Source: an uncultured bacterium | GTDB taxonomy: Bacteria; Bipolaricaulota; Bipolaricaulia; RBG-16-55-9; DRJF01 | Assembly (NCBI GenBank): GCA_913053845.1 | Contig: CAJXGD010000006.1 | Coordinates: 713 to 64,712, forward strand | Length of the DNA stretch: 64,000 nt | Direction of reading: 5' to 3' | Shown: piece by piece, positions 11,074 to 51,148 of the stretch | How positions within the stretch are numbered: the stretch's first letter is position 1 | Layout: each line of letters starts with the position of its first letter | Position numbers and translations under genes: made by a program | Notes under the pieces: generated by a model | The model's input: the letters and a program-made list of their open reading frames with translations, nothing else | The model's database searches: none | What the model was told of the DNA's origin: nothing

Positions 11074-12489
11074 ATGAAGCTGATCAAGCAAGCCAGAGAG
11101 ACGATCGAGCGCTACCGGATGCTCCGGCGAGGCGACCGGGTCCTGATCGCCCTCTCCGGCGGAGTTGACTCGCTGAGCCTGCTGGAGGTGCTGAGCGAGT
11201 TGCGCGCTGAGCTGGGGCTTTGGCTGGCGATCGCCCATCTCGATCACCAACTGCGACCCGGCTCGGCCCATGATGCGGAGCTCGTGAGGCAGATCGCTCA
11301 GCAGCACGGCCTGCCAGCCATCATCGAGGCGCAAAACGTGCCGGAGTATATTAACAGCCGGCACTGCTCGCCGGAGGAGGGCGCCCGCCAGGTGCGCTAT
11401 CGCTTCTTAGAACGGGCCATGCGGCAACTGGGGGCCAACCGGATCGCCCTGGGCCACAATCGAGACGATCAGGTGGAGACCTTCTTGCTGCGCCTGATCC
11501 GCGGCGCCGGCCCGGCGGGGCTGGCCGGGATGCCGCCGGTGCGCGGTCCCTTCATCCGCCCCCTGATCACCTGCTCCCGCGCAGATATCCTGGCCTTCGC
11601 TCGGCAGCGTCACCTGTCTTACTGCCAGGATCCCACCAACCGCGAGCTGGGACCCCTGCGCAACCGGGTGCGCCAGCAACTGCTGCCCCTGCTGGCCGGC
11701 TATAACCCCCAGATCCGGGAGACGCTCTGGCGCACTCAGCAGCTGCTCGGCCAGCTCGATCGTGATCTGGAAGCGCTGGCCCGACCCTTGCTGGCACGGG
11801 CTACTCTGGTCACGCGACCGGGGGAACTGCTCTTGGACAAGCAGGCCTTGGCTGAACAACCGGATAGCCTGAAGCTACAGACGTTGCGCGCTGCCCTGCG
11901 GCAGGTCCGAGGCGACCTGCGCGGCATCGAAGCGGTCCATCTGGAAGCGCTGCTCGCCGAGTTCAAGCGGCGGCGCTCCGGCGCCCAGATCGAGCTGCCC
12001 GGCGGTTGGCTGGGGGTCAACCGGGGAGCTAAATTCCTGCTGACCCGCGCCGCGCCCAGCGCCCCGGAGCCGCCCGATAGCGGCGAATATTCCTTGCGTG
12101 TGCCCGGCGAGACGGTGTTGCCAAGCCTGGGTTGGCGCTTCCGGACGACGCTGGACCGCCTGGACCATTCGGCGGCAGCCCTGCGATTCAGCGAGCCGGA
12201 GCGGCGTTTGGAAATCGCTCTGGATTACGCTAAGATTAAAAAACCCCTGGCGGTGCGGCTGCGCCGCCAGGGAGATCGGTTTCACCCCTTGGGAATGCAA
12301 GGGACGAAGAAATTGCAGGATTTTTTCGTCGATGAGAAGCTGCCACGGAGCGAGCGGGATCGGACTCCGCTGTTGGTTGATCGCAGCGGGATCGTCTGGG
12401 TGGTCGGCTGGCGCCTGGACGAGGCTTACAAACTCGAGGCGACTACCAGACAGGTCCTGCACATCCGGGCTGCGCTCCTGAGCGCTTGA
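11074..12489 (+). CDS. tilS: tRNA(Ile)-lysidine synthetase
   Basis: 471 aa; PP-loop SGGVDS near the N-terminus (RVLIALSGGVDSLSLL), TilS-length C-terminal substrate-binding region. Confidence 0.8.
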   Translation: MKLIKQARETIERYRMLRRGDRVLIALSGGVDSLSLLEVLSELRAELGLWLAIAHLDHQLRPGSAHDAELVRQIAQQHGLPAIIEAQNVPEYINSRHCSPEEGARQVRYRFLERAMRQLGANRIALGHNRDDQVETFLLRLIRGAGPAGLAGMPPVRGPFIRPLITCSRADILAFARQRHLSYCQDPTNRELGPLRNRVRQQLLPLLAGYNPQIRETLWRTQQLLGQLDRDLEALARPLLARATLVTRPGELLLDKQALAEQPDSLKLQTLRAALRQVRGDLRGIEAVHLEALLAEFKRRRSGAQIELPGGWLGVNRGAKFLLTRAAPSAPEPPDSGEYSLRVPGETVLPSLGWRFRTTLDRLDHSAAALRFSEPERRLEIALDYAKIKKPLAVRLRRQGDRFHPLGMQGTKKLQDFFVDEKLPRSERDRTPLLVDRSGIVWVVGWRLDEAYKLEATTRQVLHIRAALLSA

Positions 12490-14158: not shown

Positions 14159-14261
14159 AGCAGAGATCTGGAAATATCGTACAAGTTTAGCGTTCATCAG
14201 TCACGGGAATTCAACCTCCAGGGGTGACTGCTGGAGTTGAAGCGGTGGTAGCCTACCGGCG

Positions 14262-14624
14262 GTGGTAAGCACCTGCATCTTCGAGTTCATTCGGCAGAAT
14301 GTCAACCAAGATGCCGTTGATGTGATCTACTCTGACGAATGGGGCGGTTACCGGATGCTGAAGCGCTATATGCCTCATAGGATGATCCACCACCGCATCA
14401 CCTTCGTTGACGGTCCAATCCACACTAACACTATCGAGAGCTTTTGGTCGCTCCTGGAGCGTGGGATTGTTGGGGTGTTTCATCATATCTCTATCAAACA
14501 TCTTGATCGCTACCTCGCTGAGTTCTCTTGGCGGTTTGATAACCGCAAGGCTGAGGACATTCTCGATGCTATCATGTGCAACGTCGAAAGAAAGCACTCG
14601 GGATATGCAGAGCTAATCGCGTGA
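14262..14624 (+). pseudogene. IS1595-family (ISXO2-like) transposase, C-terminal fragment only
   Basis: 120 aa matching the C-terminal DDE_Tnp_IS1595 region (..HTNTIESFWSLLERGIVGVFHHISIKHLDRYLAEFSWRFDNRK..); the N-terminal ~200 aa of a full transposase are absent. Confidence 0.6.
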
Positions 14625-14885
14625 CTTGCTTGCTGCCCTAATACTGATGACGCCGACTAACGCCCCAATGATCAGTTCTACTGCGTTGGTGAGAACGATG
14701 ATTAGAGTGTTCTGGTTGGGAGTGGGACCCTTCCACCACTCATCCAATATGACAAGAAGGACGACGAGACCAACGGCGAGCCATTGCAGAAATCTAATTA
14801 CACTCTTAGCTTCTGGGGGAAGTGTCGGCTCGATGTCGGGACTCATATTGCTCTTTTGTATAGACTGTCGCGTGCTCATGATCAA
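14613..14885 (-). CDS. hypothetical small membrane protein
   Basis: 90 aa with two clear hydrophobic helices (LQWLAVGLVVLLVIL; LIIVLTNAVELIIGALVGVISI); competes with overlapping plus-strand ORF 14626-15072, which looks less protein-like. Confidence 0.3.
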   Translation of the reverse strand: MIMSTRQSIQKSNMSPDIEPTLPPEAKSVIRFLQWLAVGLVVLLVILDEWWKGPTPNQNTLIIVLTNAVELIIGALVGVISIRAASKSRD

Positions 14886-15239
14886 TAATGCTCTCAGTAT
14901 GAGGATACCGGAAAGAATGCCACCATATAAGCCCCATCATTTTCAGCATCTTAGCTATGGATATGAAGGGCCTAGCAATCACGGTATCGCCCTCTTGTCC
15001 CCTTGGGGAAGGCTTGGGGATGGGGTTCTGCAAGAGCGTGACCCGTCCATTGTAAGATGGTGGAGACTTTGAGAGTCCAGTCTCAATCTGATCGTATATT
15101 CCCATGAATGACGAGGCTTCATAGCAGATCCCCGACAAACTTGGAGAATCCGAAGCTGTGGTTAGTCCATCTCTTAGCAATGCAGTCCCATTTTTCATCT
15201 TGGCGGCGGTGCAGGTGGTGGCCCGCTATCCAGCAACCG

Positions 15240-15590
15240 CTAATGCTCCTCTTGATATTGGTTCCAATAGCTCTGAAGCACATCCATAATCTCTCGCATC
15301 GTTTGAACAGACACGTGGATTCGCGCGACACACTTGGCATCCACAGTAACATTGGGGTTCTCTCGAAGTATCTTGCGCTCCTCTGCGGTGCTCGCAAGTG
15401 GAGGATACAGCTCGAAGAACGAGAGAATGAAATCGGCATCGCTTGACTGAATAGCAAAATGCGTCGCGTATTTCCCTTCAAGACCATCAGGAAACACGAA
15501 TTCAATAGGCCTCATCACTTGAACAGCCTTCTTTTTCTGAACAACTTGGGAAGCTGTCCTTTCCTCTGCTGATTCAGCCATCCTAATCAC
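15240..15590 (-). CDS. DUF3467-family protein (hypothetical)
   Basis: 116 aa; blocks EGKYATHFAIQSSDADFILSFFELYP and AKCVARIHVSVQTMREIMDVLQSYWNQYQ match my recollection of the DUF3467 pattern (G.Y.N.A.I.HS.SEF.LDF ... A.V.SRI.LTP.HAKRLL.AL..NI.KYE). Confidence 0.45.
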   Translation of the reverse strand: MIRMAESAEERTASQVVQKKKAVQVMRPIEFVFPDGLEGKYATHFAIQSSDADFILSFFELYPPLASTAEERKILRENPNVTVDAKCVARIHVSVQTMREIMDVLQSYWNQYQEEH

Positions 15591-15598
15591 CTATAATT

Positions 15599-15628
15599 AG
15601 TATACTGCAGGCTGCTAGGCGTTGTCAA
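15599..15628 (-). promoter_or_regulatory. sigma70-like promoter (minus strand TTGACA-18-TATACT) for the DUF3467 gene; would give a leaderless or very short leader mRNA
   Basis: Plus-strand TGTCAA at 15623-15628 and AGTATA at 15599-15604. Confidence 0.3.
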
Positions 15629-15763
15629 TACGTACAAAGTTATGCCTCCCCTTCATAAACCTGACTAGCCCGACAGACATTCATCACCTCGCGCCTAGCA
15701 CGCTTGCAATCGGCGCTCCCGTGCGTCAAAAAGAATTTCCAAATCTCTGCTAAAATTGGGGCG

Positions 15764-15792
15764 TTGACAACTGGCCGGCTCGCGATTATCAT
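15764..15792 (+). promoter_or_regulatory. sigma70-like promoter for tRNA-Gln (TTGACA-17-TATCAT)
   Basis: Perfect -35 TTGACA at 15764-15769, 17-nt spacer, -10 TATCAT at 15787-15792, ~13 nt before the tRNA 5' end. Confidence 0.45.
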
Positions 15793-15805
15793 AAGGGCAG
15801 TTCAG

Positions 15806-15879
15806 TGGGAGATCGTCTAATGGCAGGACGACGGGTTCTGGTCCCGTTAGTGGGGGTTCGAATCCTCCTCTCCCAGCCA
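15806..15879 (+). tRNA. tRNA-Gln (anticodon CTG), CCA encoded
   Basis: Acceptor TGGGAGA/TCTCCCA (U1-A72 as in bacterial tRNA-Gln), anticodon stem ACGGG/CCCGT loop TTCTGGT (U33, CUG, G37), T arm GGGGGTTCGAATCCTCC, GCCA 3' end. Confidence 0.8.
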
Positions 15880-15890
15880 GAGTGATACTG

Positions 15891-17645
15891 ATGACCCAGT
15901 TAATCCAAGGAGAAGTCTTCGTCGTCGGTGATGACGTCAACACCGATGAGATCATCCCTGCCCACTACTGTACCACCACCGATTTAGACAGCCTGGGCAC
16001 CCACGCCCTGGAAGACCTGCACCCGAGCAAAAACCCCTCAGGTGAGCCCTTTCGCCCCGGACGGTATCGGCTGCTGATCGCCGGGGAGAACTTCGGCTGC
16101 GGCAGCTCGCGCGAGGTGGCCCCCATCGCCTTGGCCAAGGCTGGCATCGAGGTGATCTTGGCCAAATCGTTCGGCCGGATCTTCTATAATAACGCGATCA
16201 ATTGGGGCCTAGCCATCTCCCGCGCCCGCCACTTGGTCCCGGACGACGTCCGGACCGGCCAAACGGTCGAGATAGACTTGGATGATGAGACTTTCTGGCA
16301 GGATATGGCCCCTCTCCACCGCCAGATCATCCAGGCCGGGGGACTGACCGCCTTTAATAAGCAGGGCAAAGAGATCCATCAGCCCAGCGCCCCGCCGCGC
16401 CCCATGACCCTGGCAGAAAAGATCCTGGCCCGAGCGGCCGGGGTCCAGTATGTCCAGCCCGGGATGCTTCTCTCCGCCGAGGTGGATCGGGTGATCACCC
16501 ATGAGCTGACCCTGCCGGTCGCCGCCGAGCAGCTCTACCAGGCTTACGGAGCAGATTTTCGCGTTAAAGATACGGAGAAAATCCTGTTCGTCGCCGATCA
16601 CACCCTCCAGATTCCCCTGGTCCGCGACGATTGGGAATCCCAGCAGATGGTGCAAAAAGCCTTGGTCTTCGTCAAGGAGCAAAAGCTGCCCCACGCCTTC
16701 CTGCCCCCGGCGCCCTTCATCAGCCAGGGTATTTGTCACGTGCTCTTTCCGGAAAAAGGGCTCATCAGACCGGACACGCTGGTAGTGGGGACCGACTCGC
16801 ATAGCTGCACCTACGGAGCCTTTGGCTGCTTCGCCTTTGGCATCGGCAACACTGATTTAACCGAGATCATGGTCTCCGGCAAGCTCTTGGTGAACGTGCC
16901 GCAGACGGTTCAAGTGGAGCTCAGCGGCCGTCTGCCGCGCGGGGTCTACGCCAAAGATGTAATTTTATATATCCTAAGCGAAGTGGGACAGAACGGTTTT
17001 ACCAACTCGGTGGTGGAGTTCAGCGGACCGGCCTTGGAGTTCCTCAGCAGCGACGATCGCTCGACCATCGCCAACATGACGGTGGAAGGTGGGGCAAGTT
17101 GTGGGATCTTTCCCGTAGGCCGGTTGCGCTCCGACCCCGATGCCGTATATCTGAAAAAGCTTTCCTTCGATCTCGCTGGGCTGGTACCCTACGTGGCCCC
17201 GCCCTACAAGCCGGATAACGGGATGCCGCTGAGTGAGCTGGACCATCCGGTGAAGATAGACACGGCCTGGGTGGGTAGCTGCACCGGAGGCAAGCTGGAG
17301 GATGTGGCGGCGGCGGCAGCTGTGATGAGCGGCCGGCGAGTTGCATCCGGAGTGCGTTTCATACTCTCGCCGGCGACGATGGGCATCTGGGAGGAGGCCG
17401 GCCGCCGGGGCTATTCGCGCGAGCTGCTGGCCGCCGGAGTGCAACTCTTCCCCTCCTCCTGCGGGGCCTGCATCGCCATGGGTCCGGGGGCGCTCAGCGA
17501 TGAGCAGCAGGTGGGCGTCTTCGCCTCCAATCGCAACTTCAAGGGGCGCGCGGGCAAGGGGCGAGTTTACCTGGCTTCACCGGCCACGGTGGCCGCTTCG
17601 GCGATCGCCGGTGAGATCGCTGACCCGCGGCAGTATTTGGCTTAG
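15891..17645 (+). CDS. aconitase-family hydro-lyase with fused small (LeuD-like swivel, N-terminal) and large (LeuC-like, C-terminal) domains
   Basis: N-terminus VVGDDVNTDEIIP..GENFGCGSSRE (LeuD/swivel signature); C-terminal part with VGTDSHSCTYGAFG, VGSCTGGKLED and ASNRNFKGRAG Fe-S cluster-binding motifs of the LeuC/aconitase catalytic domain. Start taken at the ATG (MTQLIQ); an upstream GTG at 15882 is possible. Confidence 0.7.
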   Translation: MTQLIQGEVFVVGDDVNTDEIIPAHYCTTTDLDSLGTHALEDLHPSKNPSGEPFRPGRYRLLIAGENFGCGSSREVAPIALAKAGIEVILAKSFGRIFYNNAINWGLAISRARHLVPDDVRTGQTVEIDLDDETFWQDMAPLHRQIIQAGGLTAFNKQGKEIHQPSAPPRPMTLAEKILARAAGVQYVQPGMLLSAEVDRVITHELTLPVAAEQLYQAYGADFRVKDTEKILFVADHTLQIPLVRDDWESQQMVQKALVFVKEQKLPHAFLPPAPFISQGICHVLFPEKGLIRPDTLVVGTDSHSCTYGAFGCFAFGIGNTDLTEIMVSGKLLVNVPQTVQVELSGRLPRGVYAKDVILYILSEVGQNGFTNSVVEFSGPALEFLSSDDRSTIANMTVEGGASCGIFPVGRLRSDPDAVYLKKLSFDLAGLVPYVAPPYKPDNGMPLSELDHPVKIDTAWVGSCTGGKLEDVAAAAAVMSGRRVASGVRFILSPATMGIWEEAGRRGYSRELLAAGVQLFPSSCGACIAMGPGALSDEQQVGVFASNRNFKGRAGKGRVYLASPATVAASAIAGEIADPRQYLA

Positions 17646-20970: not shown

Positions 20971-21072
20971 AGGGTTCTCGATACCGCTGCTGCGCATCTT
21001 GCGATTATAACTTGGAGATGAGTTTGACCCAACTCTTGACCTTTTGCCACGCTTATGCTATGATAGCTTACC

Positions 21073-21615
21073 TTGCCTATGGAGATCAAAGTCGTCGAGA
21101 GACATAGAGAATGGGGCGCTGAGCTACGGGATTATGCTATCGCTAAGGTGCAACATTTGAGCCACTACTACGACGGGATCATCAACGTGGACATCGTCTT
21201 CGATCTCGAAGGTGAGCGGCAGAGTTGCGAGTTGATAGCTAACTTGGCCCGTAAGAAGATCATCAAGGCCCACGAGGAAGCGGACGAGATTTACGCTGCC
21301 ATTGACGGCGCGACGGCCAAGCTCAAACGCCAGTTGCGGCGCTATAAGGGTCGGCTGCGCGAGAACAAGCGCGGCCGAGGCCCGGTGGCGCTGACCGCAG
21401 AGCTGGGGCCGGAAGATGGGGTCACTGAGGTGGCGCCGCGCATCCTGCGCACTCCCTTGAGCTTGAGCAAACCGATGACCCCCGAAGAGGCCATCCTCAA
21501 GCTGGACTCTTCCCCACGGGCCTTCCTACTCTTCCTGGACGCCGAGCGTCAAAAACTCAGCGTGCTCTGGCGCGTGGACGACGAGCACTATGAGTTGATC
21601 GAACCGGAATATTAG
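21073..21615 (+). CDS. hpf: ribosome hibernation promoting factor, long form (RaiA/HPF)
   Basis: 180 aa; N-terminal sigma-54-modulation/YfiA fold block (IKVVERHREWGAELRDYAIAKVQHLSHYYDGIINVDIVF..) plus C-terminal dimerisation extension typical of long HPF. Confidence 0.8.
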   Translation: MPMEIKVVERHREWGAELRDYAIAKVQHLSHYYDGIINVDIVFDLEGERQSCELIANLARKKIIKAHEEADEIYAAIDGATAKLKRQLRRYKGRLRENKRGRGPVALTAELGPEDGVTEVAPRILRTPLSLSKPMTPEEAILKLDSSPRAFLLFLDAERQKLSVLWRVDDEHYELIEPEY

Positions 21616-21632
21616 CCTTAGGGAGGGATGGA

Positions 21633-22658
21633 ATGAGCAAGGCGGTTGCTCTCATTTCCGGCAGCTTGGCCAGTTTGGTGGCCGCCCGGCTGGTGCTGAA
21701 TGAGCCGGAGGTTTCCGCGGTCAAACTACTGCATTTCCGTTCTCCCTTCTTCCGCGATTACGAGCAGAGCAAAGATCTGGCCCGACGCTTTTTCCGCGAT
21801 TCTTTCCGCAGTCAGAGCGTCAAGAAAGACTTCAAAGAGCTGACCAATATCCCCGAGCAGGGCAGTTATACCATCAAGCATTGTTGCACCGGCTGCCGGC
21901 AACTGATGCTGCGTAAGGCCTGGCGTCATATGAAAAAAGTCGGGGCCGACTTTATCGTCAGCGGTGAGATCGTGGGCATGCGTGGCCTGGAGACCGCCGA
22001 TATCACCCAACTAACCGAGCAAGTCGGCCTGGCAGAACGGGTGATTCGCCCCCTCTCGGCGCAGTACTTGCCACCGACGCTGCCCGAGCGACAGGGCTGG
22101 GTCGATCGGGCTCACCTGTTGGACCTCACCGCCGAGGATCGGCAGTCCCGCCTGCCGCAGCTGGCCCGGCAGCTGGGCATAGATTGCCAAGGCTTCCCGG
22201 CGGAGCAACGCTGCAAATTGACCCATCCTCATTTCGGCAAACGGCTAGAAGACCTGCTGAAAGAAGAGTGTTTTACCATGAATACTCTGGAGCTCCTGGA
22301 GTTCCCCCGTTATTATAAGCGACCTCCCGATGTCAAGATCGTCTTGGGCTGTGATGACGAGGAGAAGCGTCGCTTGCAGAACTTCTTTCTCCCCGAGGAC
22401 CTGCGGCTCTACGTGCCGGCCCATCGCGGCCCGATGGCGCTGGTGCGCGCCAACTGGAAGTCCAAGAGCGAACCGGAGATCGTGGAGATCATCGAGCTAG
22501 CCGCGCGGATCACCGTTACTTATAGCCAGGCGAGCCACGCGCAGCGCATCCAGACCAACTATCGCTTCGAGAACTCCCAGCAGACCCATCGCATCAACGT
22601 CTCCCCCTTCCGCTCGGAAAGCGAGTTGGAGCAACACTGCTCCAAGCCCGATTGCTGA
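21633..22658 (+). CDS. MnmA-like PP-loop ATP pyrophosphatase homolog with degenerate PP-loop (SGSLAS instead of SGGxDS)
   Basis: 341 aa; block-wise resemblance to tRNA 2-thiouridylase MnmA (VALISGSLASLVAARL vs MnmA VGMSGGVDSSVAA; KVGADFIVSGEIV vs LGADYIATGHY; RQLGIDCQGF..RCKL vs the ICF catalytic-Cys region), but the PP-loop Gly and Asp are replaced. Confidence 0.45.
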   Translation: MSKAVALISGSLASLVAARLVLNEPEVSAVKLLHFRSPFFRDYEQSKDLARRFFRDSFRSQSVKKDFKELTNIPEQGSYTIKHCCTGCRQLMLRKAWRHMKKVGADFIVSGEIVGMRGLETADITQLTEQVGLAERVIRPLSAQYLPPTLPERQGWVDRAHLLDLTAEDRQSRLPQLARQLGIDCQGFPAEQRCKLTHPHFGKRLEDLLKEECFTMNTLELLEFPRYYKRPPDVKIVLGCDDEEKRRLQNFFLPEDLRLYVPAHRGPMALVRANWKSKSEPEIVEIIELAARITVTYSQASHAQRIQTNYRFENSQQTHRINVSPFRSESELEQHCSKPDC

Positions 22659-22689: not shown

Positions 22690-24687
22690 ATGACCACCCA
22701 TGCAGCCGAGGAGCAACTGGTCCAGGCGATCCTTGCCCCCCTGAACGAGGCGCAGCGGGCGGCGGTCACCTACCTCGAAGGGCCCCTGCTGGTGCTGGCC
22801 GGACCCGGCTCAGGCAAGACCAAAGTGATCACCCACCGCATTGCCTATCTGCTACGCTCCACCGGCGTTGCTCCAGAGCAGATCCTGGGAGTGACCTTCA
22901 CCAATAAGGCGGCCGAGGAGATGCGCACCCGCCTTCGCCCGCTGCTGGACACCGGTAGCCCGCTGCCCTGGATTCGGACTTTTCACGCCAGCGGCGCCCG
23001 GATTTTAAGGGCGCACATCGGAAAATTATCGCCTAAGTACAACTCGAACTTTACTATTCTCGATCAGGCCGATCAGCGTGAGGCGCTAAGCCGGACGATC
23101 AAAGCGCTGGATCTGTCCAGCGAAGAGGTCAAGCCGGCTATACTGGCCGGGCTGATCAACCGCGCCAAGGACGAATTGATCGGTCCGGAGGAGTTTCGCG
23201 TCAGGCGCGCCGAGCAACTGGCCCCTTTCACCCTGGACATCGCCGCGCGGGTCTATCAAAAATATCAGCGCCTACTCGAAGAGAGCAATGCGCTGGACTT
23301 CGCCGACCTGATTCGCCTGACGGTGAAGCTTTTCCAGACTGACCTGCAGCTCTTGGCCCGCTACCGGGAGCAGTTTCGCTATCTGTTGGTGGACGAATAT
23401 CAGGATATCAATCAGGGGCAATATCTGCTGGTGCGCCTGCTGGCCGAGCGTGACGAGAACCTCTGCGTGGTGGGCGATGAGGATCAGGCCATCTTCAGTT
23501 GGCGCGGCTCCGATCCGGCCTATATCCTGCGCTTCAAGCGTGACTTTCCCCGCACCCGCCAGATCGAGCTGGTGCAACACTACCGCTGGCCACAAGGGCA
23601 GCGCATCCTGCGCGCCGCCTCCCGCTTGATCGAGCATAACCACGGTCGGGTCAAGGGTGTGCGCCGCGAGGAGAGCTTCGGGCGTTTGGGCCTGCCGATC
23701 CGGCTCTATCCTGCCAGAGATGAGCGGGATGAGGCCGAGTTCGTGGCCCGTCAGATCGAGCACCTCTGGCGCAGCGAGGGCACGGAGTTGGGGCAGATCG
23801 CCGTGCTCTACCGGGTGAATACCCTCTCGCGCGTGCTGGAAGAGGCGCTGATCCGCTGGGGTATTCCCTATGAGGTGGTGCGCGGCCTGCGCTTCTACGA
23901 GCGCCTGGAGATCAAAGACCTGCTGGCCTACCTGCGCCTGCTGGTCAACCCCGCCGATGATATTAGCCTGCTGCGGGTGATCAATCGCCCCCGCCGGGGG
24001 ATCGGCCGGCAAACTATCCAAGCGTTGCAACGTTGCGCGGTCCAGCACGGGATCGGCCTGCTGGAGGGCCTGCGGCTCTTGGTCGGCCAACCGGAGGCCG
24101 CGGGGCTCAAGGCCGGCCCGCAGAAGCGGTTGGCCGCTTTTCTGGACTTGATCGGCGGGCTGCAACAGCTCGCCCGGCAGGCCTCTCCCGCGGAGCTGGC
24201 TCAGGCGGTGTTGGAGCGCAGCGGCTACTGGCGCGAGTTGGGCGACCGTTCCGCCGAGGCGGAGGAGCGGCGGGGTAACCTGCGGGAGTTTCTGGCCCAG
24301 TTGCAGGACTACCAGCAGCGCCGGGAGGGGGAGGCTAGCCTGCGTGACCTGCTAGAAGAGATCGCCCTGGTCTCCGAGAGCGACCATGAGGCCGGCGAGT
24401 CGGGGCAGGCGCTGCTGATGACCCTGCATGCTTCCAAGGGCCTGGAGTTCGAGCAGGTCTTCATTATCGGCCTGGAGGAGAACCTGCTGCCGCACGCCCG
24501 CTCGCTGGCCGAGGGCACGATAGAGGAGGAGCGACGACTCTGCTACGTGGGGATGACCCGCGCCCGGATGGGGTTGACGCTCAGCTACGCCAATCAGCGC
24601 TCGCTCTATGGCCAGGTGCTGCTGGGCGGCCACTCCCGCTTTCTGGAGGAGCTGCCGCCGGAGGACCTGGAGATCCTCAGCGCCTAG
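22690..24687 (+). CDS. ATP-dependent DNA helicase, UvrD/PcrA family
   Basis: 665 aa; Walker A LVLAGPGSGKTKVITHRIAYLL, helicase motifs II (VDEYQD) and VI (VGMTRAR) in order. Confidence 0.85.
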   Translation: MTTHAAEEQLVQAILAPLNEAQRAAVTYLEGPLLVLAGPGSGKTKVITHRIAYLLRSTGVAPEQILGVTFTNKAAEEMRTRLRPLLDTGSPLPWIRTFHASGARILRAHIGKLSPKYNSNFTILDQADQREALSRTIKALDLSSEEVKPAILAGLINRAKDELIGPEEFRVRRAEQLAPFTLDIAARVYQKYQRLLEESNALDFADLIRLTVKLFQTDLQLLARYREQFRYLLVDEYQDINQGQYLLVRLLAERDENLCVVGDEDQAIFSWRGSDPAYILRFKRDFPRTRQIELVQHYRWPQGQRILRAASRLIEHNHGRVKGVRREESFGRLGLPIRLYPARDERDEAEFVARQIEHLWRSEGTELGQIAVLYRVNTLSRVLEEALIRWGIPYEVVRGLRFYERLEIKDLLAYLRLLVNPADDISLLRVINRPRRGIGRQTIQALQRCAVQHGIGLLEGLRLLVGQPEAAGLKAGPQKRLAAFLDLIGGLQQLARQASPAELAQAVLERSGYWRELGDRSAEAEERRGNLREFLAQLQDYQQRREGEASLRDLLEEIALVSESDHEAGESGQALLMTLHASKGLEFEQVFIIGLEENLLPHARSLAEGTIEEERRLCYVGMTRARMGLTLSYANQRSLYGQVLLGGHSRFLEELPPEDLEILSA

Positions 24688-36461: not shown

Positions 36462-36926
36462 ATGGACATCGAAGCCCTCGCAGCCAAATTACACCCCGTC
36501 CTATCTACCCGGCCGGAAGTGCGACTGGCCTATCTATTCGGCTCGGCTGCCCAGGGCCGCACAAAAAATAAGCTCAGCGATCTTGATATCGCCGTGCTGG
36601 TGGACGAGGACTATTACGAAGCTCACAAGGGAGGCTTTGCCTATGAAGCGGATTTGATCAACGATCTAGTCCAGGCACTGCGAATGAACAGGATAGACCT
36701 CGTCCTGCTGCACAAATCTCCACCCCTGCTGGCTCACGAGGTCATCCGCAAGGGCCGGTTGCTCTTCTGTCGCGACGCTCACGAGCGTGTCATCTTTGAG
36801 GTGGAGGTTATGAAGCGCTACTTGGATACCCAGCCGCTACGTCAGATCAAGCGCCAGTATCTCTACGAACGCATCGAGCGCGGCGCATTCAGCGAGGTGA
36901 AGCTACCATTGTCAACCGAGAGGTAA
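36462..36926 (+). CDS. minimal nucleotidyltransferase (MNT/MntA-like antitoxin of a HepT/MntA-type TA pair)
   Basis: 154 aa; GS..x9-13..DxD pol-beta NTase motif (LFGSAAQG..LSDLDIAVLVD). Confidence 0.75.
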   Translation: MDIEALAAKLHPVLSTRPEVRLAYLFGSAAQGRTKNKLSDLDIAVLVDEDYYEAHKGGFAYEADLINDLVQALRMNRIDLVLLHKSPPLLAHEVIRKGRLLFCRDAHERVIFEVEVMKRYLDTQPLRQIKRQYLYERIERGAFSEVKLPLSTER

Positions 36927-37404: not shown

Positions 37405-39060
37405 TCAAAGATCGTTGGTAAACAGGGTGATCTCATCCGTGCCGAAGCCGATGACCGCCAAGTCCGGGAAACCCTCGCGGTCGAAATCTCCCAGCGCAAT
37501 GCCCGCCGGAGTGCCTCCGGCATGAAGCAGCTTGCGCCCACCGGCCAGAAATTCCCCGCTCGCATCGCCTAGCAGCACCGCCAGCGTGTCGTTGCCCCCG
37601 TTGGCCGTCACCAGGTCAAGCTGCCCATCACCGTTCAGATCGGCACTGGCCACCGCACGGACCTGTGAGCCCACCGGGATGATCACCCGCTGGTTAAAAT
37701 GGCCGCCGGGAGCACCGTGCAAGATGGTCAGATCGCCATCGGCAGAGTCGGCCACCGCCAAGTCCAGCCACCCATCGTGGTTGAAGTCGCCGGCAGCCAA
37801 CGCGGCCGGCCCACGGCCCACCGCCGTCTCCAGCGGCGCGGCAAAGTCGCCCCGACCGTCACCGATCAAGATGGCTACCGTATCGCCGAAGAAGTCGGCC
37901 ACGGCCAAATCCAGTCGCCCATCACCGTTGAAGTCGCCTGAGAGCAGCGCACTGGGCCAGCGGCCGGCCGGGGCATAGCGGGCCGGGGCGAAGCCACCTT
38001 GCCCATCTCCCAGCAGCAACCCGATGCGATTCTGCGGGGCATCGGCCACGGCCAGATCGAGATGGCCATCGTCGTTGAAGTCCCCCCAGCTCAGCGCCGA
38101 GACCGCTCCGGCCACCGGGAAATAGCGCAGTGGCTGAAAGCGCCCGGCCCCGCTGCCTAGCGCCAGGGAAATTTCTCCGGTCTCGAAGCTGCCGCTGGCC
38201 AGGTCCGGCAAACCGTCCTCATTGAAATCGGCCACTACCAGCGAAGAGGGCGCGTGGCGCACCGGGATATTGCCGATCTGGCTGAAGCGGCCATCGGGTT
38301 GCTGGATCAGCACCGAGATGTCGTTGCTGGCGATATTGGCCACTGCCAGGTCGAGTCGCCCGTCGCCGTCCAGATCGGCGCTGACCACTGCCACCGGCGA
38401 GCGACCCACCGGCTGGACCAGTTTCTCGCTGAAGCCGAGCGCCTGAATCTCCACCACGGCGCGATCGCTCAGGTCGGCCGCGCCGGTGACCGTCAGTGTG
38501 GCCCGGTAGCGCCCCCCACGGGCGTAACGGTGGCTCACTCGCATACCGTCGGCTCCACTGCCATCGCCAAACCCCCAATGATAGCCGATGATAACCCCGG
38601 CGTTGGGGCCGTCGGCCGGCCCCAGGGAACCGGAGCCGTCGAAGGTGACCGTCAGGGGCGCCCAGCCCCCGGTGGGACTGGCGATCAGCAGCGCCCGGGG
38701 CACCAGGTCTCCCACGGTGATGGTCAGCGCGGCCGCCCCGCTGCGCCCCCGATCGTCGCTGACCAGCAGGCGCACCCGATAGCGGCCCTTGCGGTTATAA
38801 CTGTGGATCACCTGGGAGCCTTGCGCTTGGCTACCATCGCCCAAACTCCATTGATAGCGCACCAGGGTTGCTCCGGCCGTGCCGCTCACCGAGGCTGAGC
38901 CGTCCAGATGCACCACCAGCGGCGGGGGCCCGCTGATCGGCGAGGCCTTGATCACCGCCAGCGGTGCCCCTGGCGGGCCCATCAGGCCACAGCCGCTCAA
39001 TACCAGCACCAGGCTGGCGCAGATGAGCATCAGTTTGAGCCAATTGGCAGCTTGTTTCAC
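37405..39060 (-). CDS. secreted lipoprotein with two PKD domains and FG-GAP/VCBS (integrin-alpha-like) repeats
   Basis: Lipobox LVLSGC; two PKD signatures (PLVVHLDGSASV..YQWSLGDGS; PLTVTFDGSGS..YHWGFGDGS); seven or more repeats of DFNxDGxLDLAVA. Confidence 0.7.
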   Translation of the reverse strand: MKQAANWLKLMLICASLVLVLSGCGLMGPPGAPLAVIKASPISGPPPLVVHLDGSASVSGTAGATLVRYQWSLGDGSQAQGSQVIHSYNRKGRYRVRLLVSDDRGRSGAAALTITVGDLVPRALLIASPTGGWAPLTVTFDGSGSLGPADGPNAGVIIGYHWGFGDGSGADGMRVSHRYARGGRYRATLTVTGAADLSDRAVVEIQALGFSEKLVQPVGRSPVAVVSADLDGDGRLDLAVANIASNDISVLIQQPDGRFSQIGNIPVRHAPSSLVVADFNEDGLPDLASGSFETGEISLALGSGAGRFQPLRYFPVAGAVSALSWGDFNDDGHLDLAVADAPQNRIGLLLGDGQGGFAPARYAPAGRWPSALLSGDFNGDGRLDLAVADFFGDTVAILIGDGRGDFAAPLETAVGRGPAALAAGDFNHDGWLDLAVADSADGDLTILHGAPGGHFNQRVIIPVGSQVRAVASADLNGDGQLDLVTANGGNDTLAVLLGDASGEFLAGGRKLLHAGGTPAGIALGDFDREGFPDLAVIGFGTDEITLFTNDL

Positions 39061-39128: not shown

Positions 39129-41339
39129 TCAGCGCCTGACTGCCAGCTTCTGCACCCCGCTGCTGACCGTCTGCCCCTGGGCGGTGTCAACCGTGACCAG
39201 ATAGAGATAGACCCCCGTGGCCACCGGGGCGCCCAGCCGATCCTGCTCTGACCAGACCAGCGCTCGCCTGATCGTGGCGCTGAAGCTGAAGACCACCCGC
39301 CCGGCCAGGTCGAATACCTGCAAGTGCCAGCCCCTCCCAGCCGCGCCGGGGGCCATAAGCGCCGACCAGAGATATCCTGAGGCCCGGCGCTGCGGTCTGA
39401 GCGCGGCCAGCTCGGCCCGCAGGGTTCGGCCCTGGCCGACCACTATCAGGCTGTCCCCCTCGACCGGCCGGCCATTGATCGTGCCCTTTAAGCGGTAGCG
39501 TCCTGGCTTGATCTCCGAGGAGAGCACCAGCGCGTAACGCAGCCAGATCGTCCGGCCCGGCGCGGCGGCCGGCCAACTCCAGGCCGAGCTTCCGGGGTCA
39601 AACTCTCCCCCGCCATTGTCCAGCGGCACGATGCGAAAACCCGCAGGCGGCTTCTCCTGCAGTCGCAGGCCGCCGAAGCGCCCCAGTGGCATTTGCAAAT
39701 TGATCGAGACGACCAGTCGCTCGCCAGGTCGGACAGCGGAGCCCGTATGCTGAACGTGACGTGCGGCGCTGGGCCAACCTAGGATCAAGTCTAGCTCGCC
39801 GGCCCCATAGGTGACGTCGGGACCGGGCGGGCCCAGATCGGTGGCGTCCCCGCGCAGAGCGGCCTTCAGTTGGGCGGTGCTCCAGCCGGGATGCTGCGAG
39901 AGCAGCAGTGCGGCCGCTCCGGCCACGTGCGGCGCGGCCGCCGAGGTCCCCAAGAAACCGCCGAATCTATTAGAGAAGAAAAGATTGTCTACCCCATCGG
40001 GTCCGACTAAATCCGGCTTGATGCGCCCATCGAAGGTGGGCCCCAGGGCGCTGAAGCTCTCCTGAGGGCCGCTGGACCAGCGCTCGCGATTGACCGCTCC
40101 CACGGCCAGCGTGCAGCTGCAGTCGGCCGGAGCGACGAGGCTGCCGTGGGGTATGGGCTTCTCAAAATATGCTCCCGACTCGATCTGAAAGAGCCGCAGC
40201 CACATCGGCCGCGTGGCCCAGTGGGCGCGGACCCGCACGAAATAGACACCGGGATGGTCAGCCACATATTGCAGCTCCTCGCGTGGTGGCTGGGTCCCCG
40301 TCTGGCGATTCTGAGAGCTGGCCAGCACCTTGCCACGGGCATCGGTGAGATAGAGATCGTAATCCTGATCGGTCGTCGGCCAGTCGTTCCAGACCAGCAC
40401 CAGGTCAATCAGGCCGCCAAGCGGCACTTTCAGCGCTAGCGACTGCTTCCCCAGGGCGAACTCGGCCCAACCGTCGTGGTTGCTGTCGCGGAAGCGGCCT
40501 ATCCAGTGCGCCTGTGCTTGATTGCCCGCCGCGTTGACCCAAAGGATCCCCGCGGCACGAGCTCGACGCGCTATCTCATTGATCAAACCCGTCCCGTCGT
40601 CGAAATCGGTATCGAACCAACCGAGCGAGCAATTGATCACCCGAACACCTAGCCGAATCGCATCATCCACGGCGTTCTCTAAGTCAACCTCATCGCCGAT
40701 CTTCATCAGATATAGCTGAGCACGCGGGGCCATCTCATGGACGATCTCGGCCACGGCGCTGCCATGCTCGCCGCCGGTCAGCAGTCCTTTGCCGGTATAG
40801 TCTTTTTTGAAGACGATCGCGCCGGCCGCCAGCACCCGGTGCTTCACCGCCCAGTAGAGCCCGGAGAAGCCGGCATCTATGATGGCTACCTTGACCCCTT
40901 GACCTTGGAAACCCTGGCTCTGGAAGAGCAGGCCACCGGTGGGCAGCAGCCCTTGGCTGAGCTGCAACTGACCCAGCGGCGCCCAGCGGTAGGGCCGACG
41001 GATATATCTGATGCCGGGGACACGGGTGGCGATCTCATTCAAGCGATCCAGCGGCAGGCGGGCGCGCAGCAGGTCGGATGAGCGCGCCTCGATCTGGGCG
41101 CCCAACTCTCGCAAGGCCGCTTGATCTATCGCGCCGCTCGCGCCTCCCAGGGGTTCGATGATCGCCGTGACAGAAGCACCCGGCCGGCTTGTGGCAGCCA
41201 GCCGGGCCAGCGAGCTCTCCAATTTGCCGCTCGGCGGAGGAGGGCCGGCTAAAGCGATGAAGGAGAGCGCAGCAAAGAGCAGCAGTAGGGGCGAAGCATT
41301 CGCAAGCCAAGAACGGCGTATCTTCTTGAATGCTTGCAC
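39129..41339 (-). CDS. subtilisin-like serine peptidase (S8) with T9SS-type C-terminal sorting-domain-like tail
   Basis: 736 aa; catalytic D (VAIIDAGF), H (HGSAVAEIV), S (GTSAAAPHVAGAAALL); C-terminal ~80 aa LQVFDLAGRVV..GVYLYLVTV..GQTVSSGVQKLAVRR shared with the three downstream paralogs; GTG start. Confidence 0.8.
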   Translation of the reverse strand: MQAFKKIRRSWLANASPLLLLFAALSFIALAGPPPPSGKLESSLARLAATSRPGASVTAIIEPLGGASGAIDQAALRELGAQIEARSSDLLRARLPLDRLNEIATRVPGIRYIRRPYRWAPLGQLQLSQGLLPTGGLLFQSQGFQGQGVKVAIIDAGFSGLYWAVKHRVLAAGAIVFKKDYTGKGLLTGGEHGSAVAEIVHEMAPRAQLYLMKIGDEVDLENAVDDAIRLGVRVINCSLGWFDTDFDDGTGLINEIARRARAAGILWVNAAGNQAQAHWIGRFRDSNHDGWAEFALGKQSLALKVPLGGLIDLVLVWNDWPTTDQDYDLYLTDARGKVLASSQNRQTGTQPPREELQYVADHPGVYFVRVRAHWATRPMWLRLFQIESGAYFEKPIPHGSLVAPADCSCTLAVGAVNRERWSSGPQESFSALGPTFDGRIKPDLVGPDGVDNLFFSNRFGGFLGTSAAAPHVAGAAALLLSQHPGWSTAQLKAALRGDATDLGPPGPDVTYGAGELDLILGWPSAARHVQHTGSAVRPGERLVVSINLQMPLGRFGGLRLQEKPPAGFRIVPLDNGGGEFDPGSSAWSWPAAAPGRTIWLRYALVLSSEIKPGRYRLKGTINGRPVEGDSLIVVGQGRTLRAELAALRPQRRASGYLWSALMAPGAAGRGWHLQVFDLAGRVVFSFSATIRRALVWSEQDRLGAPVATGVYLYLVTVDTAQGQTVSSGVQKLAVRR

Positions 41340-41358: not shown

Positions 41359-43113
41359 TTATCTGAGGACGACCAGCTTTTTGACCCGACTGCTGAAGCT
41401 CTGTCCGTCCGCGCCCCGGACCGTCACGATATAGAGATAAACCCCGTTGGCCAGCGGCCGACCGGAGCGATCCAGCGGCCGGAAACGCAACCGGTTGCCG
41501 CTCCCTTGTAGGTCTGCGAGGGGACGGCCGTTCAGGCTGAAGAGCTGTAGCCTGACGTCGGCGATCCCCGCTCCTCGGACCTGCAATTCCGCCCGGCCAC
41601 CTGACAGCGAGCGCAGGCCGATGGAGCTTATCGCTAGAGGTGCCGCTGCCGCTGTGGGCTCTCTCATCATGCTCTGGCTGACTCCCAGGAAGCGGAGCAG
41701 GTCGCCCCAGAGGCCACCTACTGCCAGACTGGGCGGGCCGGGGGGCAGAAGCGAATTGTCCCAGCGGTTACGGTCCAGACCGGCGCTGAATAGCTTGCAA
41801 CTACCGGCCACTTTGACCCAGTAGCCCTTAAAATCATTGAGCGGCTCGCTGGGATCAATCGGCGCGTACTTGCTGCCATCGTACCACCAGGGCCCCGATT
41901 GCAGTTGACAGCCGCGAAAGATCGAGCCAATACGATTCCAGCTCTTGGAGGAGGAGATCAGATTCCAACCCTGATGCAACTCCAGATCCTGACGGACATT
42001 GGTGCCGGTCGCCTGCAGGGTGCAGGCGTTATCCACCTTGAGCCAATAACCCTTGGCCGGCTCCAGCTTGTTGGCCTGGATATAGCGGCTGCCGGTCCAC
42101 TCCCAAGGGCCGCTGGCGAACTGACAGGTGCCCTTCAGATCAGCCGGTGCAATGGTGCCCACCGGTGAGGAGATCATGTTCCAGCCGGCGTCGAGCCGCA
42201 AGATCAAGCCGGAGATCGGCACTGGAGGAGGCGGCGGCGCACCGGAGGTGGGCGGGCCGGACTCGCTGATGATGCTAAAACTGTCGGTGAGTGGGCGGTC
42301 ACTCAGGAAATTCGAGCCACAGTTGATCGGGATATCCCGTTGGCAAGGGCCGTTCTCTTTCAAAGGCGTATCGTCGGCCACCGCCAGCCGCAGCGAGACG
42401 TTAATCCGGCCGGCTGGAGCGTTGGAGCCGATGTCCACAGTGAAGTAGAGCAGCAGCGGCGTCGTCTCGCCACCCAGGCCGGCGGCGTAGACCGGCTGTA
42501 GGTTTTGGCTGGTCATGATCCAATCTTGCTGGCGCCCGAAGCGGGCGACGGCCTGCCCATTGCTGTTGGTAAATTGAACCGGCACCCGGGCTATCAGCTC
42601 GTTGGCCTGGAAGAGGATGCCATCTCCACCTCCACTAAAAGGAGGGAGAGGGAAGCCATCGGTGTAGACACGCAAAGTCTTGAGTGCCTTGGCGCCCGGT
42701 CCGCTAAAGGTGATCACCCCGCCCTTGATGCCGGTGGCCAGGCCATCGGCTCCGCCGGTCTTGGCCGGCTTGGGCGTGCAGCCTAAGATCGCCAAGCCGC
42801 CGGAGATGGCCATCGGCGTGCCCGGCAGAGAAGGGACGATCTTAGCGGTAGTATTATTCAGCACTCCGCCGTCACAGATGCCCACCACAATGGCCAGCGC
42901 CTCATCGGTGCCCGGGTTGATCTGTCGCGCTTGATCCCGTGTCAGCAGGTTGGTCAGGTGAATCACCTGGATGTCGCTCTCCGCTAGGCCGCTGCCGGCC
43001 AGATAGCCTGGTAAAGGCGCCGCTGAGGCCCTCCCGCCGCCGGTCCCAAATCCCACCAGCAGCAGGACGGACGACAGCAGCGCCACCAGAACAGTCCGCA
43101 TGCTATACTTCAT
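41359..43113 (-). CDS. secreted repeat protein, paralog 1 (shared N-terminal domain, 2 Trp/Cys-rich modules, T9SS-type CTD-like tail)
   Basis: 584 aa; signal peptide; N-terminal domain ~65% similar to paralog 2; two modules of the form GWNMISSPV..C..GPWEW.G..Y..A..LEPAKGYWLKV..C; CTD ..GVYLYIVTVRGADGQSFSSRVKKLVVLR. Confidence 0.6.
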   Translation of the reverse strand: MKYSMRTVLVALLSSVLLLVGFGTGGGRASAAPLPGYLAGSGLAESDIQVIHLTNLLTRDQARQINPGTDEALAIVVGICDGGVLNNTTAKIVPSLPGTPMAISGGLAILGCTPKPAKTGGADGLATGIKGGVITFSGPGAKALKTLRVYTDGFPLPPFSGGGDGILFQANELIARVPVQFTNSNGQAVARFGRQQDWIMTSQNLQPVYAAGLGGETTPLLLYFTVDIGSNAPAGRINVSLRLAVADDTPLKENGPCQRDIPINCGSNFLSDRPLTDSFSIISESGPPTSGAPPPPPVPISGLILRLDAGWNMISSPVGTIAPADLKGTCQFASGPWEWTGSRYIQANKLEPAKGYWLKVDNACTLQATGTNVRQDLELHQGWNLISSSKSWNRIGSIFRGCQLQSGPWWYDGSKYAPIDPSEPLNDFKGYWVKVAGSCKLFSAGLDRNRWDNSLLPPGPPSLAVGGLWGDLLRFLGVSQSMMREPTAAAAPLAISSIGLRSLSGGRAELQVRGAGIADVRLQLFSLNGRPLADLQGSGNRLRFRPLDRSGRPLANGVYLYIVTVRGADGQSFSSRVKKLVVLR

Positions 43114-43199
43114 GTTGACCTCCCCTTGGATTCATGTTGAGGGATAAATGCCTCGCAGCTTCTTTATACCTCAACCGGATAAGGGGAGGCACGACGGTC

Positions 43200-45425: not shown

Positions 45426-45448
45426 CTATGTTCCCCCTTGATTATACG

Positions 45449-45565
45449 CCGGGGATTGAAATCCCCGGCTACGGTGAGGCATAAAACCCCTACGGGGTTC
45501 CAGGTCGTGAACCCTCGTGAGAGGGTTTCCCTGACGTCACGTAGCCGGGAAATTCATTTCCCGGT
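45449..45565. repeat. structured intergenic element, copy A (four hairpins plus a closing long-range helix)
   Basis: Hairpins CCGGGGA-TTGAAA-TCCCCGG, CCCC-TA-GGGG, AACCCTC-GTGA-GAGGGTT, CCGGGAAA-TTCA-TTTCCCGG; CCGGCTACG pairs with the distal CGTAGCCGG; ~80% identical to copy B at 61361-61474 with compensatory changes. Confidence 0.45.
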
Positions 45566-45568
45566 CTC

Positions 45569-47197: not shown

Positions 47198-47319
47198 ATC
47201 TGCCTCCTTTGCGTAGAGTTGATGATCACGAGATTCGGCATGGAGCATTCTAGCAGAGAGATGGGGAGAGGACCAAATAGCTAAAATCAAGAGCAGAGGC
47301 TACCTATGCGGTGCCCCGC

Positions 47320-50536: not shown

Positions 50537-51148
50537 CTAGATCAGCTCCAACTCTTTGAGCACCTGGAGCAGCGGGGGCAAGGGCTGCTGCCACAGCCAG
50601 TCCAAGCACAGCTCCAGTCCGGTCAGCACCGACGAGCTATACCGGCCTTGCTCCGTCTTCCGGCGATCATAGCGCCCATCGTCCCCCAAAAGATAGAAGT
50701 CGGCACGGTGCTCTTCAGGATCGAGCAGCCAATATTCGCGCACCCCTCCCGCCTCATACTCGGCGAACTTGGCCCCGCGGTCGCGCAGGCGGCTTTCAGG
50801 AGAGACGATCTCGACCGCCAGATCCGCCGGACCCTCCAGATAAGTGGGCTGGAGCCGCTCCAGGTGCTCTTGAGCAATAAAGAGCAGATCGGGCTCGCGG
50901 CCGCGTCGCTGCTCACCCAGGTGCATCTGGAAGGGCGCTGAACGCACCGCCCCCAACTGTCGTATCTCGGCGTAGAGCCGCAGTATAACGGCCAGAAAAC
51001 CGGACAGATCTTGATGCCGATCGGATGCCGGCGTCAATACGACCACCTCCCCATCTACCCATTCGGCCCAGCTGTCCTCGCTGCAGCGCTCGAGAAACTG
51101 GGCGTAGCTCAGTTGTGTTTGTGTTCTAATCTGGGTACTTTGCGTCAT
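50537..51148 (-). CDS. Uma2 (DUF820) family putative endonuclease
   Basis: 203 aa; Uma2-typical blocks (..PDLLFIAQEHLERL.., ADLAVEIVSPES.., KFAEYEAGGVREYWLLDP..). Confidence 0.7.
   Translation of the reverse strand: MTQSTQIRTQTQLSYAQFLERCSEDSWAEWVDGEVVVLTPASDRHQDLSGFLAVILRLYAEIRQLGAVRSAPFQMHLGEQRRGREPDLLFIAQEHLERLQPTYLEGPADLAVEIVSPESRLRDRGAKFAEYEAGGVREYWLLDPEEHRADFYLLGDDGRYDRRKTEQGRYSSSVLTGLELCLDWLWQQPLPPLLQVLKELELI

Follow-up and report, generated by a model that had tools for sequence, protein, structure and literature searches.

A Bipolaricaulota-restricted offshoot of the ThiI+NFACT-R family without canonical PP-loop ATP residues is linked to the ribosome hibernation gene hpf

It is customary to regard all PP-loop thiolases as enzymes that depend on ATP. 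Here we describe gene X, at 21633..22658 on the plus strand of a 64,000-nucleotide stretch of DNA from an uncultured bacterium of the Bipolaricaulota (the whole stretch is called the window below), which encodes a 341-amino-acid protein made of a variant ThiI-type PP-loop domain and an NFACT-R domain. Its closest described relatives are the ThiI+NFACT-R (ThiI+DUF814) proteins, which have been predicted to be THUMP-less tRNA 4-thiouridine synthases (Burroughs & Aravind 2014; PMC4075521). According to that work, the family retains the ATP/adenylation residues, a CxxC motif with an internal cysteine, a GRxRxxQ/TxxE loop and two near-invariant NFACT-R arginines, and is linked to TusA/IscS-type sulfur relays; no experimental study of the family was found in a literature search. 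On the evidence of open reading frame (ORF) calling, Pfam, phmmer and hhalign, together with the distribution described below, X belongs to an offshoot of this family that is restricted to the Bipolaricaulota and in which many of these features have been replaced.

The domain composition of X is simple. A Pfam scan (E<=1) returned NFACT-R_2 (PF18297) at residues 228-330 with E=5e-13, placing the RNA-binding domain at 22314..22622 on the plus strand, and a sub-threshold match to ThiI (PF02568) at residues 3-141, with no other families; NCBIfam gave weak ThiI-type matches only. The AlphaFold2 model (predicted local distance difference test score 92.9) shows the Rossmann-like alpha/beta PP-loop fold, whose first element is directly strand beta1 with its loop (residues 2-14), and neither the Pfam scan nor the model gave a match to THUMP. 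Absent from X is the hallmark of PP-loop ATP-pyrophosphatases, SGGxDS with its Mg2+-binding Asp. A protein identical to X has been called in two public metagenome-assembled genome (MAG) assemblies, GCA_011052375.1 and GCA_006240775.1.

In place of the canonical SGGLDS, X carries the remodelled loop S9-G10-S11-L12-A13-S14 (21657..21674, plus strand), a placement on which three alignments agree. A phmmer search against PDB sequences aligned LISGSLASLVAA with LLSGGIDSPVAA of B. anthracis ThiI (2c5s), hhalign of X against 43 canonical ThiI+NFACT-R proteins put SGSLAS exactly on SGGLDS, and in a MAFFT alignment of 169 sequences G11 and D13 are found in 110/110 canonical proteins, whereas the variant proteins have S11 in 58/59 and A13 in 54/59. 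The initial annotation had described this ORF as having a degenerate SGSLAS loop in which the conserved second Gly and the Asp are replaced, and this is what we find (G11 to S, D13 to A); no intact SGGxDS, which would have spoken for a misplaced loop, was found elsewhere in the protein. The alignment of orthologs that it had called for shows the loop to be conserved: 71 of the 75 full-length species-level copies read SGSLAS, the others being SGSRAS (2), SGSLPS (1) and SGSLSS (1), so that Asp occurs in 0/75, and all 75 keep the CxxC and the third Cys. The organism does maintain normal PP-loops, since the TilS (tRNA-Ile lysidine synthetase) encoded in the window at 11074..12489 has a canonical SGGVDS and serves as an in-genome control.

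The remodelling extends beyond the loop. A motif comparison of 59 variant with 110 canonical sequences showed that several near-invariant canonical residues are not kept in the variant clade, namely G11, D13 and Q121 (each 110/110 in canonical proteins), D87 (109/110) together with the N-P of NPCxDC, and R117 (109/110) of GEVLGQRPMSQ. Residues G167, R168, R170 and Q174 of the GRxRxxQ loop, each present in at least 95% of canonical proteins, are unconserved in the variant, 86% of which have L174, and X contains neither the GRxRxxQ nor the TxxE flexible-loop motif. Also lost are the G192-G193 that precede the third Cys in canonical proteins (GGC) and, in NFACT-R, the segment G225-R226-H227-F-R229 along with R240; R226 and R240 are found in 109/110 and 105/110 canonical proteins, whereas the variant mostly has Leu at 226 and is variable at 240, and X is without the two-arginine signature. 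Common to both groups are S9, G10, L12 and S14, the cysteines C85, C88 and C194, T110-G111-E112 and R139-P-L-S-A. C85 and C88 occur in 59/59 variant and 110/110 canonical sequences and C194 in 59/59 variant sequences, so that X retains the CxxC motif and the additional Cys. New invariant positions have appeared in the variant clade, both in the PP-loop part (R36-S37-P38, F40, R59, Q61, K64, R89, R193) and in the C-terminal part (N217, Y227-Y228-K229, D233, K245, F252-L-P-x-D256-x-R258-x-Y260, R272, W275, K278, R311-F-E313 and T318), and the NFACT-R_2 domain has gained a 7-residue insertion at 278-284.

Four plus-strand segments, delimited by the alignments, show how old and new features are interleaved. 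In L33-H34-F35-R36-S37-P38-F39-F40 (21729..21752), the adenine-contacting H-F at the end of beta2 is kept and is followed by the invariant R36, S37, P38 and F40; C85-x-x-C88-R89 (21885..21899) holds the CxxC half of the CxxC+C triad and has lost the flanking N, P and D of NPCxDC; S110-G111-E112-I-V-G115-M-R-G-L-E-T121 (21960..21995) keeps the ribose-contacting G-E and has lost the phosphate-contacting Gln positions; and R193-C194 (22209..22214) supplies the third invariant Cys, with the canonical Gly-Gly before it replaced and Arg at 193. Two further blocks named in the initial annotation are present as described, the Cys region near RC being R193-C194 and the GADYIATGHY-like block being GADFIVSGEIVG at residues 104-115.

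When the ATP contacts of T. maritima ThiI (PMC4041423) are mapped onto X through the phmmer (2c5s) and hhalign alignments, the pocket divides into a retained and a lost half. The adenine and ribose contacts remain (L180-L181-S182 as L7-I8-S9, V204-T/H205-F206 as L33-H34-F35, and G286-E287 as G111-E112), whereas the phosphate and Mg2+ contacts are gone: G184 has become S11, D186 has become A13, N288 has become I113, and the positions of Q291 and Q295 (equivalents of Q116 and Q121) are variable. A review (PMC5372745) names the PP-loop Asp as the Mg2+ ligand in this superfamily and Asp189 as critical to adenylation by E. coli ThiI. The surroundings of the pocket have thus given up two acidic residues (D13, D87) and acquired three basic ones (R36, K64, R193); judging from the secondary structure of the model and the alignment to the ThiI contacts, the latter would lie at the C-terminal ends of strands beta1-beta3, beside the Cys ligands. 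In M. maripaludis TtuI the homologous Cys triad binds an essential [4Fe-4S] cluster (PMC9825150), and by this homology C85, C88 and C194 are candidate [4Fe-4S] ligands in X, as in the [4Fe-4S]-dependent tRNA sulfurtransferases (TtuI-Mm, TtuA, NcsA), which use three-Cys ligation.

The variant forms a well-delimited clade. A word-indexed search at >=50% identity gave 120 clusters, essentially all with [FI]SGSLAS, and an exhaustive profile search of 1.84 billion representatives gave 1501 relatives. Among the nearest of these (E<1e-53), full-length proteins have SGS-x-[A/S/E]-S or a similar loop, SGSPES, AGTLES and SGSLAN being examples, and beyond E~1e-49 the relatives are canonical SGGLDS proteins (112/150 among the matches listed). 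In GTDB, with one genome per species, the variant is found in 77 genomes, nearly all of which bear either one of the labels Fraserbacteria, Acetothermia and Bipolaricaulota or a generic label of a bulk MAG project. A neighbour-joining tree recovers the variant clade as monophyletic on the longest internal branch (0.172 vs a median of 0.012), with mean pairwise identities of 0.50 within it, 0.39 within the canonical family and 0.27 between the two; the midpoint root is drawn to this long stem, and distances to all canonical groups are alike (0.77-0.81). Among canonical proteins, those ranked nearest to the variant profile (the P0142 group) all have SGGLDS and CxxC, have PALP, Beta_elim_lyase and hut genes as neighbours with no hpf linkage, and come from MAGs labelled Bipolaricaulota, so that both forms exist in this phylum; a urocanase encoded beside P0142 (60% identity) gave no taxonomic placement of its own. 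We did not see the two forms in one assembly among the three canonical-bearing assemblies looked up, JAOACA, JAIPHJ and JAGXLP, which are absent from the variant-locus assemblies. Separately, a Bipolaricaulota MAG with the prefix K9M78 appears to hold two canonical SGGLDS ThiI+NFACT-R copies, P0391 (K9M78_03270) and P0409 (K9M78_08070), which points to a tendency of the family to duplicate within the Bipolaricaulota.

X is under strong purifying selection and is not decaying. The ratio of nonsynonymous to synonymous substitution rates (dN/dS; Nei-Gojobori, X against one 94%-identical relative, L162) comes to 0.104 over the entire gene, with 0.095 in residues 1-225 and 0.142 in the NFACT-R part. 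The two proteins differ at 21 amino acids, most of them within residues 120-170, the loop in which canonical motifs were lost, and about 50 invariant columns persist among variant sequences down to about 40% identity. A pseudogene, a chance substitution and a sequencing artefact are ruled out by the conservation of the loop in 75 species together with the dN/dS of 0.10. No curated NCBIfam model captures the clade, whose members are publicly named "hypothetical protein", "tRNA-specific 2-thiouridylase", "tRNA-uridine 2-sulfurtransferase" or "thiamine biosynthesis protein"; the thiouridylase, sulfurtransferase and thiamine-biosynthesis names are probably wrong.

The genomic context has changed completely as well. 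The gene order in the window is plsX, tRNA-Leu and GNAT (minus strand), followed by a promoter-like site, hpf, X and a UvrD/PcrA helicase gene. By Pfam and public gene calls, hpf (21073..21615, plus strand) encodes a long-form ribosome hibernation promoting factor with S30AE and C-terminal dimerisation domains (PF02482, E=8e-19; PF16321, E=6.5e-11), public annotations starting it at ATG 21079 (178 amino acids) rather than TTG 21073. The ATG of X lies 17 nucleotides past the hpf stop codon, with a Shine-Dalgarno sequence, GGGAGGG (21621..21627, plus strand), in the spacer 5 nucleotides 5' of the start, and no terminator-like site was found in these 17 nucleotides. Just 5' of hpf, TTGACC-17-TG-TATGAT (21036..21064, plus strand) resembles a sigma-70 promoter by consensus match only (10/12, with an extended -10 TG) and is the probable promoter of an hpf-X transcription unit. 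As a side observation, the -10 element ends at 21064 and leaves a 5' untranslated region of a few nucleotides with either hpf start (21073 or 21079), so that the hpf mRNA may be leaderless or near-leaderless.

The pairing with hpf holds across the clade. By tblastn, hpf is directly upstream on the same strand in 74/76 variant loci; by phmmer it is found in 71/71 variant and 0/49 canonical loci of at least 6 kb; and by a profile hidden Markov model (HMM) of HPF applied to all loci it is found in 82/83 variant and 0/88 canonical loci (641 kb), the lone miss being a 2.9-kb contig that breaks off within X. A median of 26 nucleotides (range 0-143) separates the hpf stop codon from the start of X. 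The outer flanks, by comparison, vary by lineage, for instance GNAT / hpf-X-pcrA, or CCA-adding enzyme, DUF87 ATPase, hpf, X, Zn-ribbon and rpoC, among others; hpf-X is the only constant pair, is also present in the early-branching SGSPES and AGTLES forms, and has outlasted at least three rearrangements of the outer flanks. Canonical genes have other neighbours (ThiS, ThiF, TusA, PALP, NIL, HcyBio, Rrf2, Thi4, NifU and cysteine-desulfurase-like genes), and ThiF, ThiS, TusA, PALP, NIL and HcyBio are found in 0/71 variant loci (NifU in 2/71) vs 4-15 of 49 canonical loci. The association with sulfur-relay genes (TusA, IscS-like, IscU/NifU) is thus missing from the variant loci, and in the 64-kb window we found TilS only and no canonical thiI, mnmA, iscS or tusA. 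The genomic context of the clade has therefore switched from sulfur-metabolism operons to an operon-like linkage with hpf.

The translation-related neighbourhood that the initial annotation had noted accordingly stands for the upstream side, given the 82/83 loci with hpf, and does not extend to the helicase. The UvrD/PcrA-type helicase (22690..24687, plus strand, by Pfam) is a lineage-specific neighbour 3' of X, being downstream in 31/71 variant loci and replaced by a Zn-ribbon gene and rpoC in other lineages; its presence in fewer than half of the loci led us to reject it as a functional partner. One large sub-lineage of the Bipolaricaulota also has hpf-X within the conserved same-strand array of CCA-adding enzyme, DUF87 (HerA-like) ATPase, hpf, X, small Zn-ribbon and rpoC (L035, L040, L055, L064, L165, L166 and about 25 other loci). 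Counted separately, the CCA-adding enzyme occurs in 28/71, DUF87 in 31/71, the Zn-ribbon in 28/71 and RpoC in 48/71 variant loci, and all four in 0/54 canonical loci.

Taken together, these observations lead us to favour, at about an even chance of being right, the reading that X is a neofunctionalised ThiI+NFACT-R member, an adenylation-incompetent RNA-binding protein, probably of the iron-sulfur (Fe-S) type, that works with HPF. Judging from its motifs, X would no longer carry out Mg-ATP-dependent uridine adenylation and therefore would not be a conventional thiouridine synthase. The old nucleotide pocket would still bind some ligand, and, if electropositive and metal-free as predicted, might bind a phosphate-bearing one directly, either RNA backbone or a nucleotide; the CxxC+C triad probably carries a metal or an Fe-S cluster; and the respecified NFACT-R domain would bind RNA, most plausibly the ribosome or tRNA. 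X would be co-expressed with HPF and contribute to ribosome hibernation or its reversal. Ribosome association would have a precedent, because the NFACT-R domain of RqcH contacts 23S rRNA (A-site finger) directly and is required for 50S binding (bioRxiv 10.1101/2020.09.03.281279). The initial suggestion of a pseudo-enzyme or RNA-binding paralog, or else of a different adenylation chemistry, is thereby partly supported, its assignment to MnmA excepted. A more specific and doubtful version is that X is a ribosome-hibernation accessory factor evolved from a tRNA-thiolating enzyme, whose pocket and NFACT-R domain bind rRNA, tRNA or an adenine nucleotide and whose Fe-S site senses redox, oxygen or iron-sulfur status, coupling the energy or redox state to HPF-mediated dimerisation or reactivation in the anaerobic Bipolaricaulota.

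This leads us to the points that weigh against the favoured interpretation and to the rival explanations. A compensating acidic residue may exist elsewhere in the three-dimensional pocket. Moreover, the hpf-linked genomes are all from one phylum, so that shared ancestry of gene order might account for some of the synteny, although the outer flanks vary. Finally, retention of the Cys triad and of the adenine pocket is also expected of a still-active enzyme. It is accordingly conceivable, if unlikely, that X is still a tRNA thiouridine synthase (for s4U8, 4-thiouridine at position 8, or another site) with non-canonical use of ATP, its Mg2+ being held by, for example, another residue or the RNA substrate, and that its adjacency to hpf reflects a mere translation-related operon. 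The invariant CxxC+C triad, the retained adenine- and ribose-contact positions, the strong purifying selection on the PP-loop domain (dN/dS 0.095) and the acidic loop residue of two early-branching relatives (SGSPES and AGTLES) would fit such an enzyme. Against it, the equivalents of Gly184, Asp186, Gln291 and Gln295 are all missing, as are D87, R117, the GRxRxxQ loop and both NFACT-R arginines, and the review cited above gives Asp189 of E. coli ThiI as critical for adenylation (PMC5372745). Sulfur-donor genes near X are also at 0/71 variant loci apart from NifU in 2, and canonical chemistry is available to the phylum, because canonical SGGLDS copies occur in Bipolaricaulota MAGs.

The loss of the ATP machinery with retention of a three-Cys site, as in [4Fe-4S] enzymes with a free fourth iron, would also suit an Fe-S enzyme that works on RNA without ATP, for example a thionucleoside desulfidase running the reaction in reverse (functionally RudS/TudS-like) or a catalyst of another non-redox cluster reaction on tRNA or rRNA at entry into or exit from dormancy. 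RudS/TudS remove s4U via a 3-Cys [4Fe-4S] cluster, in an account that nowhere mentions ATP (PMC11417400), and the new invariant polar residues Q61, K64, D233, D256 and E313 could provide acid/base catalysis. We nevertheless hold this to be distinctly unlikely: X has no homology to TudS, there is no evidence of s4U in these organisms, most residues specific to the clade are basic or aromatic, in line with RNA binding, and the linkage with hpf is left unexplained. That X is a catalytically dead structural relic or a decaying gene, with an inherited and functionally meaningless adjacency to hpf, would agree with the lost catalytic motifs and with the confinement of all occurrences to a single phylum; it is strongly disfavoured, and in our view very improbable, in the face of a dN/dS of 0.10, about 50 invariant columns, a within-clade identity (0.50) above that of the canonical family (0.39) and an hpf-X pair that survives at least three outer-flank rearrangements.

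The clade offers a clean natural case of a PP-loop thiolase without its adenylation machinery, in which the Cys triad and the RNA-binding module are kept under strong selection. Should the interpretation of a neofunctionalised partner of HPF prove true, X would be a new protein partner in bacterial ribosome hibernation, for which, to our knowledge, only a handful of factors are known, and it would exemplify the repurposing of an RNA-modification enzyme as a pseudoenzyme or sensor. The pattern is unexpected for the fields of tRNA thiolation and ribosome hibernation, and our literature search found no relevant prior description linking hpf or hibernation with ThiI-like or PP-loop proteins or with Bipolaricaulota; it is limited to one uncultured phylum, with the function read from sequence and context.

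Several other features of the window deserve mention. A 1.6-kb stretch of low GC at 14160-15880 (0.505 vs about 0.62 elsewhere), directly upstream of tRNA-Gln (15806..15879), is without a long ORF and contains at 14262..14624 a fragment like the C-terminal part of an IS1595-type transposase, ...HTNTIESFWSLLERG...; probably a mobile element once inserted at the tRNA gene and left this stretch as a scar. The adjacent aconitase-family protein (15882-17645) has its swivel (Aconitase_C) at residues 64-110, N-terminal to the main domain (193-412 and beyond), an order permuted with respect to classical AcnA/IRP-type aconitases. Three consecutive large ORFs of 584, 741 and 573 amino acids on the minus strand (41359-47290), with no Pfam match at E<=1e-6, have as neighbours a subtilase (39129..41339) and a protein with FG-GAP/PKD repeats (37405..39060). 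They may represent a cluster of uncharacterised proteins that are secreted or located at the cell surface. Unrelated to X are a putative endonuclease of the Uma2 family (50537-51148) and a stand-alone Pol-beta-type nucleotidyltransferase (36462-36926), the latter being a typical component of toxin-antitoxin or defence-type modules.

Comparison with known systems places X closest to the thiolases. To universal stress proteins and PAPS/APS reductases, which are non-hydrolytic members of the adenine-nucleotide alpha-hydrolase superfold, it has no specific sequence relationship, and unlike them it derives from the thiolase branch and carries an RNA-binding domain. The initial assignment to MnmA, the tRNA 2-thiouridylase, does not hold: the Pfam scan of X gave no PF03054 match, MnmA is outranked by ThiI, LarE, QueC and NAD synthetase, and its central and C-terminal beta-barrel domains are absent from X, which has NFACT-R in their place. 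From RqcH/NEMF, X differs by lacking the NFACT-N, HhH and coiled-coil domains, and NFACT-R fused to a PP-loop domain does not typically share the DWH/DxxxH motif found in NFACT proteins. Relative to classical ThiI/TtuI (NFLD-THUMP-PPase, including the [4Fe-4S]-dependent archaeal subclass), X is without the NFLD, THUMP and rhodanese domains, the Gly and Asp of the PP-loop and the phosphate-contacting Gln residues. Overall, it is the ThiI+NFACT-R family that X matches in its two-domain architecture, in length (about 330-345 amino acids), in end-to-end homology (hhalign probability 100, E=1e-67, 31% identity) and in the CxxC+C triad and the TGE and RPLSA motifs, and from which it differs in having no PP-loop ATP residues, GRxRxxQ/TxxE motifs, NFACT-R arginines or sulfur-relay linkage, being linked to hpf instead.
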